NCBI RefSeq assembly: GCF_054482595.1
Contig: NZ_CM137008.1
Direction: 5' to 3' (one strand)
DNA: 64,000 bases
The position numbers and the translations under genes are program-made. How positions within the stretch are numbered: position 1 is the first letter of the stretch; every line of letters begins with the position of its first letter. The notes beneath the pieces were generated by a model. It was not told where the DNA came from and ran no database searches. It saw only the letters and a list, made by a program, of their open reading frames with translations. Shown here in pieces: positions 1-28,514 of the stretch.

Positions 1-503
1 CGAAATCACTGAATGCTCTTTGAGTATATCTTCGCTGTCAGGTAACCAATGAACCCGTTCCACATCCCGGGAGCTTCTGGTACTGCGCCGCTTCGTCCGG
101 TGACACAAAGCTCTTACATTGCCCATGGCATCCATAATCAACTGCTCCAGAACAGGGGCATCGAAATACGCCTTTCGGGCACATCACACCACTTTATATT
201 CCGGCATATCAGGAGCATAGTTCCGGGTCAGAAGTACCGGTCATCAGATCGAGCAGGATGTCAGTCAATGCTGCCCCCGGGATTAACTATGCAGAAACAG
301 TCCTGAGACACAGACAAGATCAGAGACGACGCACGCGTGTGGTTGATTGACACCAACGTGCGGGTTCAGCGAATCAGCGATCACGGTGCGATTTCGCGCC
401 ACAGTACACAATCAATAGTAAGCGTAAACTGACCGCCGTATGTAGCCATTAAGCCTGTATTGGTAACGTAGGTGCCCACTTTTTCAACTAGTGGACACCT
501 GTT

Positions 504-710
504 ATGGAACAGAAAATATTATCCGCAGAACCCCGCAGAACATTTTCAAATGAGTTTAAACTTCAAATGGTTAAACTGGCTTCACAACCAGGAGCCTCTG
601 TTGCCCGTATTGCCAGGGAACACGATATCAATGATAATCTTCTGCTCAAATGGCTCTGGCTGATCGGCCTTCCCCCACTTTTTACGCGAGGTGATTATGA
701 AGATCAATGA
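504..710 (+). pseudogene. IS3-family transposase OrfA-like fragment (HTH N-terminus, truncated)
   Basis: 68-aa ORF with the typical IS3/IS911 OrfA N-terminal pattern (RRTFSNEFKLQMVKL...SVARIAREHDINDNLLLKWL); too short for an intact orfA and no orfB follows. Confidence 0.5.
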
Positions 711-908
711 CTAGCCGTCGAACCGTGTGCATGAACTGCTGCACTGAAACTTCTCAGCTGTAAAGTAATCCTTACGCTACGTACTTCTCGGAGCGCTTAC
801 GATTAATCAGATGCAGTCCTGACTGGAAGAAAGAAAAATGGAAAAATAAGAGGAATTAATATATTCCACGTTCCTGAAATCCTGGAGGATATTAATGTCA
901 TCAAAATA

Positions 909-1925
909 TTAGCGAACGATAATCCCTAACAAAATACCCAGTACGCCAAAGTCAGCATCACTGGAGGTGGTGTTAGCAAAACCAATATCATCCAGCACAG
1001 GCAATAAGAATACTGGCGGGAAGGTAATAGGCAAGCCTTGAGCGAAGGCACCCAAAATCGCACCACGACGTCCCCCCGTTGCATTACCGAATACCCCTGC
1101 AGTTGCACCTACGAAGAAGTGCGGCACCATACCAGGAATAATCACGATCATGTTCAGCAGATACAACGTGAACATACCGATTAAACCTGCAGCAAAGCTG
1201 CTCAGGAAACCAACCAGTATAGCGTTAGGTGCGTAAGGGAAGACGACCCGGGAATCGAGAGCTGGTCTGGCATTCGGAACCAGCTTGTCTGAAATACCTT
1301 TGAATGCCGGGACAATCTCCGCAATCACCATGCGCACACCCTGCAGAATGATGTAAACACCTGCTGCGAAGGTAATAGATTGCATGATGGAGAACATGAA
1401 CCAGTTTTTACCACCACTAAGCTCTTTCACCACATCTGCACGCGCAAACAGGCACGTCACCAGGAAAATTATGCTCATGGTAAAAGAGATAGCAACCGGC
1501 GTGTCGCGCAAGAACAGCAGACTTTTCGGCACATTCATGTCTTCAGTCGAGTGGTCTTTATTACCAAACTTGCTGCCGATGAAACCGGCCAATACATAAG
1601 ATAATGTTGAGAAGTGGCCGATGGCAACGTCATCAGAACCGGTCACTTTCTTCATGTACGGATGCGCAATAGCCGGGAAAAAGACCATTGCCACGCCAAC
1701 AACCAAAGAGCCAACGGCTATAAGCGTAATGCCGGTCATGCCTGCTGTTGCCAGAATTACCGCTACCATCATCGACATAAACAACGTGTGATGACCGGTC
1801 AGGAAGATAAATTTCCACGGTGTGAAACGGGCAATCAGAATGTTGATAACCATCAGAAACGCTGGACTATCCCTCGGAAACGTTAGCTGAGATCCGCCAT
1901 ACCGGCGCACGAGCCGGGCTGGCAT
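909..1925 (-). CDS. PTS sugar transporter EIIC, SgaT/UlaA-like; probably N-terminally truncated, ORF start likely spurious
   Basis: 338-aa polytopic membrane ORF with glycine-rich transmembrane segments typical of L-ascorbate-family EIIC; shorter than the usual 420-480 aa; it abuts a truncated epimerase fragment on the opposite strand. Confidence 0.45.
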   Translation of the reverse strand: MPARLVRRYGGSQLTFPRDSPAFLMVINILIARFTPWKFIFLTGHHTLFMSMMVAVILATAGMTGITLIAVGSLVVGVAMVFFPAIAHPYMKKVTGSDDVAIGHFSTLSYVLAGFIGSKFGNKDHSTEDMNVPKSLLFLRDTPVAISFTMSIIFLVTCLFARADVVKELSGGKNWFMFSIMQSITFAAGVYIILQGVRMVIAEIVPAFKGISDKLVPNARPALDSRVVFPYAPNAILVGFLSSFAAGLIGMFTLYLLNMIVIIPGMVPHFFVGATAGVFGNATGGRRGAILGAFAQGLPITFPPVFLLPVLDDIGFANTTSSDADFGVLGILLGIIVR

Positions 1926-1981
1926 TTAATCCGGCGACCCCAATCGACGCCTGGCAATATCTGGCGTCTGAGCTGGACGGC

Positions 1982-2221
1982 GTGATGGTGATGACCTGTG
2001 AGCCCGATGGGCACGGACAGCGGTTTATTCCCTCTATGTGCGAGAAAATCCAAAAAGTACGCACGGCTTTTCCTCAGACCGAGTGCTGGGCCGACGGTGG
2101 AATTACGCTGGCGGCAGCACAGCAACTGGCTGCAGCCGGGGGGCAGCATATGGTGATTGGGCGCGTCTTGTTCTTTTCATCTGACTATCGCGCGACCTTA
2201 GTTCAATTCGCCACCCTGTAA
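1982..2221 (+). pseudogene. sgcE: Ribulose-phosphate 3-epimerase C-terminal fragment (sgcE-like remnant)
   Basis: 79-aa ORF matching the C-terminal part of Rpe-family epimerases (FIPSMCEKIQKVR...DGGI...AAGG...VIGRVLF); lies immediately upstream of sgcR as in the K-12 sgc locus; N-terminal ~2/3 missing. Confidence 0.6.
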
Positions 2222-2237
2222 GAGGAGATTGTTTCTG

Positions 2238-3020
2238 ATGAGCCAACAGAGACCTGACCGTATCAAACAGATGCTGCACTACCTGTGGCAACATCGTCAC
2301 CTCTCCACACAGCAGGCCATGGAGCTTTTTGGCTATGCGGAGGCGACTGTCCGTCGTGATTTTCAGTATATTGCCAACCAGTACCCAGGCATGATCCGCG
2401 GTCACGGTTGTCTCGACTTCGACGACAGTACTGACGACAAAGAGTACGTTTTCGATGTGAAACGTACATTGCAATCTGTGGCGAAGAGAGAAATAGTCGC
2501 CCTTGCCCGAACGATGATCAAAGATGGCGACTGCTTTTTTCTCGACTCCGGCTCAACCTGCCTCGAACTGGCGAAATGCCTGGCCGATGCACGGGTGAAG
2601 GTCTCCTGCAACGACATTAAAATCGCCAATGAGCTGGGCTGTTTTCCCCATGTGGAAAGCTATATTATCGGTGGACTGATTCGCCCGGGGTATTTTTCGG
2701 TAGGAGAGAGTCTGGCGCTGGAGATGATCAATGCCTTTTCCGTAGAACGTGCGTTTATCTCCTGCGATGCGCTGTCGCTGGAGACGGGGATCACCAATGC
2801 CACCATGTTTGAGGTCCGGGTGAAAACACGGATTATTCAACGCTCGCGTGAAGTTATTCTCATGGCCGAACACTCAAAATTTGATGCCGTTGAGCCGCAT
2901 GCTGTAGCAACACTCTCATGTATTAAAACGATCATTAGTGACAGCGGGTTACCTGAGACTATTGCACAGCGTTATCAGCGAGCCGGATGTCAGTTGTTTT
3001 TACCTCATTCAATAAAGTGA
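2238..3020 (+). CDS. sgcR: DeoR-family transcriptional regulator SgcR
   Basis: N-terminal HTH plus DeoR C-terminal sugar-phosphate domain; sequence from MSQQRPDRIKQMLHYLWQHRHLSTQQAMELFGY matches my recollection of K-12 SgcR. Confidence 0.8.
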   Translation: MSQQRPDRIKQMLHYLWQHRHLSTQQAMELFGYAEATVRRDFQYIANQYPGMIRGHGCLDFDDSTDDKEYVFDVKRTLQSVAKREIVALARTMIKDGDCFFLDSGSTCLELAKCLADARVKVSCNDIKIANELGCFPHVESYIIGGLIRPGYFSVGESLALEMINAFSVERAFISCDALSLETGITNATMFEVRVKTRIIQRSREVILMAEHSKFDAVEPHAVATLSCIKTIISDSGLPETIAQRYQRAGCQLFLPHSIK

Positions 3021-3392
3021 TAGGTAAGTTCGTTCGAGAGGGATTTCAAGCAAAAACAATCAATGGCACCCAATAGAAAATATTGGCGATGTGCTCGAAC
3101 GAATAAAGAAGCCCTATGCGCAATCCACACGCTACGATGTTGCAACAACACTCCATCTACTTTTTATTCTCATTCACTAAATGTGGCTGTTCTGGATTCA
3201 TTATTCAAAGTGTGTACAAGATCACATTTAATCACTTCATTACGGTTCAGCATGCTGAACAAAGCATATTTTCCACTATGTAATGCCGATACCATTTATT
3301 CCATGAGCAAGGAGGAGCCATTATGGTTCGCAAAGGGGGTGATGCTGCCAACTTACTGATTTAGTGTATGATGGTGTTTTTGAGGTGCTCCA

Positions 3393-3668
3393 GTGGCTTC
3401 TGTTTCTATCAGCTGTCCCTCCTGTTCAGCTACTGACGGGGTGGTGCGTAACGGCAAAAGCACCGCCGGACATCAGCGCTATCTCTGCTCTCACTGCCGT
3501 AAAACATGGCAACTGCAGTTCACTTACACCGCTTCTCAACCCGGTACGCACCAGAAAATCATTGATATGGCCATGAATGGCGTTGGATGCCGGGCAACAG
3601 CCCGCATTATGGGCGTTGGCCTCAACACGATTTTACGTCACTTAAAAAACTCAGGCCGCAGTCGGTAA
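3393..3668 (+). CDS. insA: IS1 InsA
   Basis: 91-aa product [43 protein letters not shown]... is the canonical IS1 InsA. Confidence 0.95.
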
Positions 3669-4090
3669 CCTCGCGCATACAACCGGGCAGTGACGTCATC
3701 GTCTGCGCGGAAATGGACGAACAGTGGGGCTATGTCGGGGCTAAATCGCGCCAGCGCTGGCTGTTTTACGCGTATGACAGGCTCCGGAAGACGGTTGTTG
3801 CGCACGTATTCGGTGAACGCACTATGGCGACGCTGGGGCGTCTTATGAGGCTGCTGTCACCCTTTGACGTGGTGATATGGATGACGGATGGCTGGCCGCT
3901 GTATGAATCCCGCCTGAAGGGAAAGCTGCACGTAATCAGCAAGCGATATACGCAGCGAATTGAGCGGCATAACCTGAATCTGAGGCAGCACCTGGCACGG
4001 CTGGGACGGAAGTCGCTGTCGTTCTCAAAATCGGTGGAGCTGCATGACAAAGTCATCGGGCATTATCTGAACATAAAACACTATCAATAA
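3587..4090 (+). CDS. insB: IS1 InsB (normally expressed as InsAB' by -1 frameshift)
   Basis: 167-aa product ...[72 protein letters not shown] is canonical IS1 InsB. Confidence 0.9.
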
Positions 4091-4322
4091 GTTGGAGTCA
4101 TTACCGAATCAACCTATGGTGCGGTATGTTTAAGTATGCCGGTATTCAATATGTATAACAGAGTTAACTATGCAATCTCACTTTCTGGCGATCCGGTAAT
4201 TTATTCAGGAAATAAGATAGACAGCTATCTGGAGTTGCTCCGGAAATGCACAGGGCAAATATCATATGGGCTGGGATACAGAAACGAAAATGAACATTTA
4301 CGAAAAGGAAACTGAGGTAATG

Positions 4323-15395: not shown

Positions 15396-16508
15396 ATGAA
15401 AAAAATTACAGTGGCACTTTCTGTGGTTGCGGCATCTGTTCTGATGGCAATGTCTGCACAAGCGGCAGAAATCTATAACAAAGACGGTAACAAACTGGAT
15501 CTGTACGGCAAAGTTAATGCAGAGCATTACTTCTCTTCTTCAGCTAGTGATGACGGGGATAAAACTTATGCTCGTATGGGTTTCAAAGGTGAAACTCAGA
15601 TTAATGACCAGTTAACCGGTTTTGGTCAGTGGGAGTACGAATTTAAAGGTAACCGTACTGAAACTGAAGGTTCTGATAAAGATAAAACTCGTCTTGCGTT
15701 TGCAGGGCTTCGCTTTGGCGATTATGGTTCGCTCGACTATGGTCGCAACTACGGTGTAGCTTATGATGTTGGCGCTTGGACTGACGTGCTGCCGGAGTTT
15801 GGTGGAGATACCTGGACTCAGACTGATGTATTTATGACCCAGCGTGCTACTGGCGTAGCGACCTATCGTAACAATGATTTCTTCGGCTTGGTTGATGGTC
15901 TGAACTTTGCTTTGCAGTATCAAGGTAAAAATGATAGTGCTGCAAAAGTGAATAACTGGAAAGGCCGTGACGAAGTTGAATCTAATGGTGATGGCTTTGG
16001 TCTGTCAGCTACTTACGATTATGAGGGATTTGGCGTTGCTGCAACCTATGCAAAATCTGACCGTACTGATGGGCAGGTATCCTATGCTAAAGACAGCCCT
16101 CTGAATGCCTCTGGTAAAACTGCTGAAGTATGGGCTACGGGCCTGAAATATGATGCAAACAACATTTACCTGGCTGCAACTTATTCTGAAACTCAGAATA
16201 TGACAGTCTTCGGTGATGACCATATCGCAAACAAAGCGAAAAACTTTGAAGCTGTTGCTCAATACCAGTTTGATTTCGGCTTGCGTCCGTCCATCGCTTA
16301 CCTACACTCTCGCGGTGAAAATATTGGTGCGTTCGGTAACCAGGATCTAGTTGAATACATCGACGTAGGTGCGACTTATTACTTCAACAAAAATATGTCC
16401 GCTTTCGTTGACTACAAGATCAACCTGATTGATGAAAGTGAATTTACCAAAGCATCTGAGGTTGCAACCGACAACATCGTTGCTGTTGGTATGACCTACC
16501 AATTCTAA
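15396..16508 (+). CDS. Outer-membrane general porin, OmpC/OmpF/PhoE family paralogue
   Basis: Signal peptide followed by [17 protein letters not shown], conserved porin motifs ([25 protein letters not shown]) and C-terminal ...VAVGMTYQF; a Rho-independent terminator follows. Confidence 0.9.
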
Positions 16509-26162: not shown

Positions 26163-27428
26163 TTACTGTTTTAATGGATTATTAATCTTTGCATATTCAA
26201 ATGGACTGATAAATTTTTCTCTGTTTGCATCCAGAAAATCGGCCCACCATTGTAGCATCAAGCGGCGTTCTTCCAGATGCTCTGCTTTATGAATGTAAGC
26301 AGCACGTACACCGTTACGTTCCTGATGGCTCATCTGACGTTCCACAGCATCGCGGGACCACAAACCTGATTCAATCAATGCACTGCACGCCATCGCCCGG
26401 AATCCATGGCCACAGACTTCCTGGGTTGTGTCATACCCCATCACCCTCAGGGCTTTATTTACAGTATTTTCACTGATTGGTTTACGCGGGTCATGTGCAC
26501 CCGTAAATATCAGACCATTTTCACCTGCCCATGTCTGAAGTTCTGTCAGTATGGCTACAGCCTGTTTGCTGAGTGGCACAAGATGTGGTGTTCGCATCTT
26601 GGAGCCCCGGTGTGAGAATTTTACGCCTGGCAGAGGTTCGCGTTCGGCTGGAATAGTCCACTTGGCATTGTCAATATCAATTTCAGACCAGCGGGCATAT
26701 CTGAGTTCACTGGAACGAATAAAAACCAGTAAATTCAGCATAACTGCCAGTCGGGTGACAGGCTGGCCTTTATAACCGTCAATACGCGACAGAAGTTCAG
26801 GCAAGCGTGAAAGATCCAGAGCAGGGCGATGCTGGCGTTTTACCGTGGTCAATGCACCAGCCATATCCAGAGCCGGGTTATATCTGATGATGCCTGACTG
26901 TACGGCATAACGCATTACAGCAGATATTCTTTGCTGCAGACGACTGGCGATTTCATAAATTTGTTTTGCTTCTGCAGCACGAACAGGGATAAGCAGATCC
27001 GGGGTATTGAGTGTTGTGATATCCCGGTTGCCGATAAAGGGGAAAACGTGTGTCTCGAGGCTTTTGAGTACTTTATCGCTGTGTGATTGTGCCCATTGTT
27101 TATTACTGGCATGCCAGCGTCGTGCAATATGTTCAAAAGAGAGCTGTAAATCAGGGACAACTTTTTTAACTCTTTTCTGTTCGCAAGGGTCAATCCCTTC
27201 TGAAATCAGTTTTCGGGCCTCATCCCGTTTTGTACGAGCTTCGGAGAGAGAAACTTCTGGATACACACCAAGTGCCAGAGTCTTCTCCTTACCCAGAATA
27301 CGATAACGGAGACGCCAGTAACGGGAACCATTAGGATGAACCAGCAGGAACATGCCGGCCCCGTCAGTGAGTTTATAAGCCTTGTCAGTGGGCTTTGCAG
27401 CCCGGATTTTTGCGTCAGTCAGTGCCAT
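26163..27428 (-). CDS. int: Tyrosine site-specific integrase, P4-type (island integrase)
   Basis: 421-aa protein with the P4-integrase N-terminus MALTDAKIRAAKPTDKAYKLTDGAGMFLLVHPNGSRYWRLRY and the C-terminal catalytic domain; lies ~200 bp from the 3' end of tRNA-Phe. Confidence 0.95.
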   Translation of the reverse strand: MALTDAKIRAAKPTDKAYKLTDGAGMFLLVHPNGSRYWRLRYRILGKEKTLALGVYPEVSLSEARTKRDEARKLISEGIDPCEQKRVKKVVPDLQLSFEHIARRWHASNKQWAQSHSDKVLKSLETHVFPFIGNRDITTLNTPDLLIPVRAAEAKQIYEIASRLQQRISAVMRYAVQSGIIRYNPALDMAGALTTVKRQHRPALDLSRLPELLSRIDGYKGQPVTRLAVMLNLLVFIRSSELRYARWSEIDIDNAKWTIPAEREPLPGVKFSHRGSKMRTPHLVPLSKQAVAILTELQTWAGENGLIFTGAHDPRKPISENTVNKALRVMGYDTTQEVCGHGFRAMACSALIESGLWSRDAVERQMSHQERNGVRAAYIHKAEHLEERRLMLQWWADFLDANREKFISPFEYAKINNPLKQ

Positions 27429-27625
27429 AGTTCAGCCTTCTGAATGCGTTAAAGAGGGTACAAATTCTGTCGAACTGGGGTATACCCGCAATTATACCCA
27501 CACAATGAGGTTGATGTGGGGGGAATCTGGTTGAGTTCGGTAGAATTGATTTGGAGGCAGAACGCTTAAATTGTGGCGTTCTGAAACGAAAAACGGACCT
27601 CCGTGGAGGTCCGTTGATATGAATT

Positions 27626-27701
27626 TGGTGCCCGGACTCGGAATCGAACCAAGGACACGGGGATTTTCAATCCCCTGCTCTACCGACTGAGCTATCCGGG
27701 C
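27626..27701 (-). tRNA. pheV: tRNA-Phe (GAA)
   Basis: Reverse complement reads GCCCGGATAGCTCAGTCGGTAGAGCAGGGGATTGAAAATCCCCGTGTCCTTGGTTCGATTCCGAGTCCGGGCACCA, which is E. coli tRNA-Phe with CCA end. Confidence 0.97.
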
Positions 27702-27806: not shown

Positions 27807-28514
27807 TCAGGCAAACCAGGCGGTCCAGGCGGCGGAAAGCGGCATTGCCAGAAGGAGTGCTGGAAGCATGTTGACCACCGGGAACATTTTAATGCCACAG
27901 ATGCGTAATCCGGTTGCCAGCAGCAATAAACCGCCTACGGCGCTGAAGTCTGCCATCATCGACGGTGTGGTCAGCGGTAATATCAGCGTGGCAGCCCACG
28001 CCAGCGTTAACTGGATGATCAGTAATGGGATACTAATCACCGATACCGCAATACCCAGCGAGCAGGCGAAGATCATCGCCGTAAAGAAATCAAGAAATGA
28101 CTTGGCGATTAAAATACTCGGATCGCCGGTCATCCCTTCGTTCATCGCCCCGAAGATCCCGGTGCCGCTGGCGCAAAACAGGACAATAATCGCGACATAA
28201 TTCTGAATAAAAGATTCATGCGCTGGCTTCTTACGTGAGTGACGAAACAGATTTTGTGCTTTGGCGACCGCTGTATTGACGCCTTTCTCCAGCAGACAAA
28301 TTTCGCCGATTAATGCTCCGAGTAAGGTTGCTAAAACCATCGCCGGAAGGTTGGCGCATTTCACCACCAGTAAAATACCAATCCCCAGCGATGCCAGACC
28401 AAAAATTGATGTCATGGAGACGCGGATACGTTCCGGTAAGCGTTGGCTAAGCAGTGCACCGAGCATGCCACCCAGTAATATTGCACTTGCGTTGATAAAA
28501 GGGCCGATGACCAC
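27807..28514 (-). CDS. yqgA: DUF554 inner-membrane protein YqgA
   Basis: 235-aa membrane protein; matches K-12 YqgA and its position next to pheV. Confidence 0.9.
   Translation of the reverse strand: MVIGPFINASAILLGGMLGALLSQRLPERIRVSMTSIFGLASLGIGILLVVKCANLPAMVLATLLGALIGEICLLEKGVNTAVAKAQNLFRHSRKKPAHESFIQNYVAIIVLFCASGTGIFGAMNEGMTGDPSILIAKSFLDFFTAMIFACSLGIAVSVISIPLLIIQLTLAWAATLILPLTTPSMMADFSAVGGLLLLATGLRICGIKMFPVVNMLPALLLAMPLSAAWTAWFA

Follow-up and report, generated by a model that had tools for sequence, protein, structure and literature searches.

UlaA (SgaT), the L-ascorbate PTS EIIC of Escherichia coli K-12, is a relative of the permease whose remnant is described here, and both fall in Pfam family PF03611. 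The vpe carbohydrate-permease locus, which Martinez-Jehanne et al. are said to have described in 2012, reportedly adjoins the deoK operon on pathogenicity islands of ExPEC. The sgc operon of K-12 has the order sgcX-B-C-Q-A-E-R and lies in the leuX-fim region. Mosaic tRNA-Phe islands of E. coli, inserted at pheV or pheU, have a P4-type integrase beside the tRNA-Phe gene, are flanked by yqgA and speC, and contain pseudogenes and remains of IS elements along with modules of metabolic cargo. According to the NCTC 86 genome paper, the vpe PTS genes lie in the same region of difference as the deoK operon (PMC5382810), and a review describes a pheV island with DeoK and names pheV as one of the tRNA genes at which integration is most frequent (PMC7545054). 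Our literature search on sgcE and sgcR returned nothing relevant.

Here we analyse a 64,000-nucleotide stretch of DNA (contig NZ_CM137008.1 of NCBI RefSeq assembly GCF_054482595.1), called the window below, in which the remains of a UlaA-family EIIC gene and of sgcE are joined at their truncated 5' ends. We read this junction, with a probability of roughly 80%, as the scar of one illegitimate deletion in a tRNA-associated E. coli island, at which nothing works any more. A preliminary description of the same stretch had recognized a rearrangement junction between a 5'-truncated UlaA-like EIIC and a 5'-truncated sgcE, and that core observation is upheld by profile coordinates, by alignments and by 11 carrier genomes.

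Results

Base-by-base comparison with intact genes placed the junction at a single nucleotide. Against the intact EIIC gene of Nissle (L004 9005-10261, 418 aa), EIIC-derived sequence runs to window base 1854; against the intact sgcE of BLR (L002 7740-8372, 210 aa), sgcE-derived sequence begins at that same base. The breakpoint is therefore at 1853/1854, with a single C at 1854 common to both gene remnants (a 1-nt overlap), and comparison with AH25 puts the junction at the same base with the same overlap. Three-way comparisons with the intact EIIC and the intact sgcE revealed no filler DNA, and we annotate 1853..1855, without a strand, as a deletion junction. It lies beside an imperfect resemblance between CATCGCAAA and CATGCAGAAA. 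Neither IS terminal repeats nor flanking direct repeats were found at 1854, and the nearest IS ends are those of an IS1 at 3338-4105; the suggestion that IS ends or short repeats might be seen at the junction was thus not borne out, the join being a 1-nt overlap. The comparison with intact loci that had been recommended for locating the breakpoint also moved it, from "around 1886-1990" to a site at least 32 nt further left. The truncated 5' ends of the minus-strand EIIC remnant and the plus-strand sgcE remnant abut at this point, and the two genes point apart.

The sgcE side of the junction is a 5'-truncated pseudogene of an Rpe-family epimerase (1854..2221, plus strand), identified by PF00834, by NF005944, by alignment to the sgcE genes of BLR and AH25 and by the PGAP annotation. 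It keeps residues 89/90-210 of 210, or 122 codons, and has lost 265 nt, corresponding to the first 88 codons and 42% of the gene. Translation of 1853-2221 gives an open frame of 122 codons that covers positions 89-198 of the 198-position PF00834 profile. NF005944 is the top match (E=2.4e-66, positions 90-210 of 210), although its score of 223 bits falls short of the cutoff, 376. This best family match, together with synteny with sgcR and the yjh genes, identifies the fragment, which ends at 2221, as sgcE and agrees with the first reading of an Rpe-family, sgcE-like fragment. The extent of that fragment had been underestimated. Its frame is open from 1850, following a stop at 1847-1849, and contains no ATG, GTG or TTG before the GTG at 1982; the ORF at 1982-2221 (plus strand, 79 aa) matches the ribulose-phosphate 3-epimerase family at profile positions 132-198 of 198 only. 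The figure of about 79 remaining codons arose because the ORF was counted from this first GTG, whereas homology begins at 1854, and the part of sgcE that is missing amounts to 42% and not to the N-terminal two thirds. In E. coli O157:H16 strain Santai, PGAP lists the same fragment as an "epimerase" pseudogene "missing N-terminus", and it is annotated as a pseudogene in 4FM as well.

Immediately downstream lies an intact sgcR (2238..3020, plus strand), which encodes a DeoR/GlpR-family regulator with HTH_DeoR and DeoRC domains and is now an orphan without its operon. The gene begins 17 nt after the stop codon of sgcE, a spacing also seen in K-12-type genomes, and it has the length of the annotated intact gene of Santai, with which it is 100% identical. 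The preliminary description had placed an intact sgcR directly after the epimerase fragment, as is the case. It had also listed sgcA, sgcQ, sgcC and sgcB as missing; none of the four has a blastn match anywhere in the 64-kb window, and sgcX is absent by the same search. Colinearity with the K-12 sgc operon extends over sgcR and the last 368 nt of sgcE (about 96% DNA identity to BLR), and yjhI-H-G-F-U follows in both, but the window keeps only sgcR and 58% of sgcE, has lost sgcA, Q, C, B and X, and carries this segment in a pheV island instead of beside fim.

On the other side of the junction is a 5'-truncated UlaA-family PTS EIIC pseudogene, probably vpeC (909..1854, minus strand), recognized by PF03611 and NF006919, by colinearity with the intact genes of Nissle and AH25 and by PGAP. 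Residues 105-418 of 418 are kept, and the first 104 codons (311 nt) are lost. Because the PF03611 (EIIC-GAT) match of the ORF at 909-1925 (minus strand, 338 aa; E=3e-108) covers only profile positions 96-394 of 394, the N-terminus is missing, as had been proposed for this minus-strand gene from the start; the NF006919 match spans positions 101-414 of 415. The intact homologue reaches E=3.5e-150 against PF03611, and the remnant, whose match stops short of the full profile, is a member of that family by descent and presumably not a functional one. PGAP gives it as a pseudogene "missing N-terminus" in both Santai and 4FM, under the name "PTS ascorbate transporter subunit IIC" in Santai, so that both fragments are already known as pseudogenes in RefSeq annotation. 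The remnant lacks about a quarter of the membrane domain and both phosphoryl-relay partners, IIA and IIB. Nissle, 1283 and AH25 have IIB, IIA and LacI genes alongside the intact gene; a blastn search of the whole 64-kb window for these three gave no match.

The 338-aa ORF that the ORF list gives for this region (909..1925, minus strand) extends beyond the EIIC remnant across the junction. It joins 23 residues antisense to sgcE to EIIC residues 105-418, with the Pfam match starting at residue 23, and since its first 23 residues come from the sgcE antisense strand, it is a chimera made by the junction. Promoter-like hits did not exceed the chance level, and no such site was found upstream of its ATG at 1925 (minus strand); the chimeric ORF is probably without expression or function.

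The identity of the permease was examined through its intact homologue (WP_000345349.1). That protein passes NF006919, a 415-aa "ascorbate-type IIC" equivalog model, at 628.7 bits (cutoff 380) and fails NF009549, the K-12 UlaA model, at 593.3 bits (cutoff 890). An assignment as the K-12 ulaA orthologue is ruled out by the score below the NF009549 equivalog cutoff. The nearest solved structure is UlaA (PDB 4RP8/4RP9; E=2e-50, aligned to UlaA residues 7-403), and the EIIC is accordingly a UlaA-family paralogue and not ulaA, given that NF006919 was passed and NF009549 failed. At 418 aa the intact homologue is shorter than UlaA (465 aa), and the window copy lacks the stretch that corresponds to UlaA residues 7-111, approximately.

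Where the EIIC gene is intact, as in Nissle, 1283 and AH25, it closes an IIA-IIB-IIC operon, next to which a regulator of the LacI family is divergently oriented. In all three this operon stands on a tRNA-associated island, directly beside a DeoR/rbsK/fucP/aldose-1-epimerase cluster whose gene content we take to be that of the deoK deoxyribose operon. The intact homologues thus share with the vpe locus an IIA-IIB-IIC operon and regulator beside a deoK-type cluster on a tRNA-associated island, whereas in the window only the 3' three quarters of the EIIC gene are left and the deoK cluster is absent. Judged from gene adjacency alone, the remnant is probably that of vpeC. "Vpe" is not used as a protein name in public databases, and no member of the protein cluster of the intact EIIC bears it. 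Clustering at 90% identity or more groups the intact EIIC (Nissle L004 9005-10261) with proteins of Providencia and Edwardsiella besides those of E. coli, which suggests recent horizontal spread of the PTS operon among Enterobacterales.

Two further features of the EIIC gene were observed across genomes. A remnant of an IS3-family transposase orfA (418..710, plus strand; ORF 504-710, PF01527 HTH_Tnp_1, E=3e-13) adjoins the EIIC stop codon in every context examined, namely the window, Nissle, 1283, R11 and AH25, and apparently marks a constant boundary of the PTS module; window 418-661 corresponds to AH25 L013 13206-13449 at 89%. Separately, in R11-type leuX islands the EIIC gene is cut at a different place, the equivalent of window base 1786 (R11 L003 8586-9461). 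This truncation was seen in 11 of 40 evenly spaced rows of a genome ranking, and since its cut point differs from that of the window, the 5' end of EIIC has been lost independently at least two times.

Of 5,426 complete E. coli genomes, exactly 11 have the identical junction, as detected at 99.4-100% identity with a 160-nt query spanning it; the other genomes match one half of the junction only. Its presence in 11 independent complete genomes shows that the junction is not an assembly artefact, and its sharing at this identity by 11/5,426 marks it as the inherited scar of a rare island lineage and not as a recent event. A composite query combined 1 kb across the junction, which ranks the carriers first, with 250-nt tags of sgcC and of the IIB gene, and was run at megablast sensitivity. 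Ten of the 11 carrier chromosomes match this query at the junction alone, sgcC and IIB sequence being absent, and on this ground the intervening genes are absent from these chromosomes and not relocated.

Two carriers depart from the common pattern. GTEN_97 (NZ_CP113493.1) is the only one with one extra matching place, seen with the junction-half and the composite queries alike, and probably has a second EIIC-type or sgc copy elsewhere on its chromosome. Rb-50 (NZ_AP025682.1) has the junction at 99.4% identity with a match that starts from window 1339; the 3' part of EIIC (window 909-1338) is also lost there, a further rearrangement on the same scar.

Substitution patterns were compared by simple Nei-Gojobori counts. 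The EIIC remnant gave pN/pS values of 0.27-0.49 against intact alleles, compared with 0.14 between two intact alleles, and the sgcE remnant gave 0.25-0.49, compared with 0.11-0.12 for the intact comparison; sgcR against K-12-type alleles gave 0.07-0.08. Because each count comprises few substitutions (6-15), the contrast is no more than suggestive, and it lends support to a possible relaxation of constraint on the EIIC and sgcE remnants.

The surrounding DNA belongs to a genomic island. The first 3,337 bases of the window are 100% identical to Santai, in which PGAP annotates both pseudogenes followed by intact sgcR and yjhI-H-G-F-U. At the other end the island is anchored (26163..27701, minus strand) by a P4-type tyrosine integrase gene at 26163-27428 and the tRNA-Phe gene pheV at 27626-27701, which ARAGORN reports as the only tRNA gene of the window; the core gene yqgA follows at 27807-28514. 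The insertion site is identified as pheV because the colinear 4FM chromosome has yqgA, tRNA-Phe and speC at this place. Window positions 1-27701, the left 27.7 kb, are thus an E. coli genomic island at pheV whose far end lies beyond the left window edge, and the junction sits about 26 kb inside it. This interior position, given by the tRNA-Phe gene, the integrase and colinearity with 4FM, replaces the K-12-type sgc site near fim as the setting of the locus. Read leftwards from pheV in 4FM, the cargo comprises nhaC, pepT, an ompC paralogue, mtnK-mtnA, yjhU-F-G-H-I, sgcR, the junction and IS66 debris. A nearly identical island stands at pheU, beside dsbD, in CDE2901 (L010). Set against other mosaic tRNA-Phe islands, the present one shows no difference in kind; it is a rare variant (11/5,426) whose cargo includes a leuX-type mtn-yjh-sgcR segment. 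The ompC paralogue, at window 15396-16508 and annotated as "porin OmpC" in both 4FM and CDE2901, is flanked by a TnpB remnant and ISEc16.

A second lesion lies 1.5 kb from the junction. An IS1 (3338..4105, plus strand), bounded by terminal inverted repeats at 3338-3360 and 4083-4105, has taken the place of 564 bp of yjhI relative to Santai, with loss of codons 6-193 in Santai numbering; it is adjoined by 3323-3337 and 4106-4315. As no target-site duplication is seen against Santai, this event was an insertion with an adjacent deletion. None of the 5,426 complete E. coli genomes has an IS1 at this site, which makes the insertion private to the lineage of the window genome, and the event in yjhI is separate from the junction and later than it.

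Among the genomes compared, AH25 has an undeleted layout that would explain the junction. Of the lineages in which sgc is intact, AH25 represents the one nearest to the window (97.2%), and its gene order is a deoK-type cluster, a transposase gene, the PTS genes EIIC, IIB and IIA (all minus strand), LacI (plus strand), two transposase fragments, an Aga/Man-type PTS with GH88 and PL8 lyase genes, an autotransporter gene, IS200 debris, a truncated 'sgcX, sgcB-C-Q-A-E-R (plus strand) and yjhI, on to an integrase gene and leuX. About 16 kb of other genes separate the LacI regulator from 'sgcX. Window 665-1854 corresponds to AH25 L013 13548-14738 at 97.06%, and window 1851-3337 to L013 36886-38372 at 97.18%; removal of L013 14739-36890 (22,152 bp; NZ_CP055256.1 4412738-4434889) reproduces the junction including its 1-nt overlap. 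Because both flanks are equally diverged from AH25, a single source lineage fits. AH25 is a model of the precursor and not the precursor itself, being about 97% identical on both flanks and carrying its island at leuX and not at pheV, and for that reason the deleted content and the 22-kb size are uncertain. No genome with flanks more than 99% identical and the interval undeleted was found among the 5,426 complete E. coli genomes. Within the AH25 interval, L013 17238-33633 encodes a DeoR regulator, a four-gene Aga/Man-type PTS, GH88, DUF2264, a PL8 polysaccharide lyase and an autotransporter. This stretch, which would be lost in an AH25-like deletion, resembles a cluster for utilization of the glycosaminoglycan type.

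Other genomes fitted less well as models of the undeleted state. In Nissle, sgc lies beside fim, and more than 20 kb separate it from the PTS module. The leuX-fim region of R11 contains both the EIIC gene (plus strand) and sgcE (minus strand), but they are arranged tail-to-tail at a distance of 74 kb, and neither deletion nor inversion of that layout gives a head-to-head junction. The island at pheU in CDE2901 is cut by IS1 just upstream of yjhI. Z1323MEC0001 has an intact sgc with extra insertions upstream, and its PTS operon does not fall within the stretch compared.

Discussion

The exact position of the junction and the AH25 gene order provide a framework for considering how two truncated genes came to lie end to end. 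From the sequence comparisons we infer an AH25-like ancestral layout, a mode of joining and a loss of function. The ancestral island would have carried a UlaA-family PTS operon (EIIC-IIB-IIA with a divergent LacI gene) beside a deoK-type cluster, and an sgc operon (sgcX-B-C-Q-A-E-R) pointing away from the PTS operon, with some 16 kb of other cargo in between. One illegitimate deletion, sealed by end-joining at the single shared C, would then have excised the DNA from EIIC codon 104 through to sgcE codon 89. In AH25 coordinates its length would be about 22 kb, and it would also have taken the EIIC's own IIB and IIA genes and the LacI regulator gene. The predicted outcome is a headless EIIC, a headless sgcE whose product is without the first 42% of its barrel, and an orphan sgcR, a scar that would have been inherited in a rare island lineage now at pheV.

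An alternative origin, unlikely in our view but the chief rival, is illegitimate recombination that joined two formerly separate segments, either through an excised circle or a tandem duplication of an R11-type leuX-fim region or through a crossover between islands moving between leuX and pheV or pheU. Relative to R11, with its genes 74 kb apart and tail-to-tail, what the window retains is the inner side of each breakpoint, the topology that a circle or duplication would leave. The island family does move between tRNA sites, standing at pheV here and at pheU in CDE2901, with related modules at leuX in AH25 and R11, and a 1-nt overlap fits any illegitimate join. This route takes more steps than one deletion, however, and a layout that one deletion would convert into the observed junction exists in the closest sgc lineage, with both flanks equally diverged.

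The single illegitimate deletion is also read here as having left nothing in working order. That the junction instead made something functional is very doubtful; such a product might be the 338-aa ORF acting as a truncated permease or channel, or the orphan sgcR, which is still under constraint, recruited to control further genes of the island, for example those of the yjh xylonate cluster next to it.

We regard as highly improbable an IS-mediated adjacent deletion, by an element since lost or nearby. The region is rich in IS remnants, among them the IS3-family orfA at 504-710 and IS66 fragments upstream in Santai, and the IS1 in yjhI made just such an adjacent deletion a short distance away. 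A deletion of this type would nevertheless leave an IS end at the junction, and what is seen at 1854 is EIIC sequence passing into sgcE without a foreign base and without an IS terminal repeat. Least credible of all is an inversion, with the junction as one of two breakpoints and the 5' halves surviving elsewhere at the reciprocal junction: head-to-head 3' fragments are expected at one end of an inversion of co-oriented genes, a purely topological argument, but no genome examined has EIIC and sgcE co-oriented, the missing genes have no match in the 64-kb window, and at megablast sensitivity the composite query has no match besides the junction in 10 of the 11 carriers. The preliminary description had spoken of a deletion or inversion breakpoint. 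The first half of that statement is favoured by the AH25 layout and the 22,152-bp removal, and the second is refuted for the 10 carriers without sgcC or IIB sequence.

The practical consequences of the junction are modest and concern annotation, typing and gene content. The ORF reading under-called the sgcE remnant, at 79 codons in place of 122, which illustrates that breakpoints are better placed by homology than by start codons. The exact junction sequence is a marker of a rare pheV/pheU island lineage and could serve in typing. Its carriers are without the sgc PTS and without the UlaA-family (probably vpe) PTS at this locus, and in 10 of the 11 the rest of the chromosome has no copy either. 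In this sense the junction represents the ordinary decay of a mosaic genomic island, in which an illegitimate deletion between cargo modules was followed by later IS1 damage.
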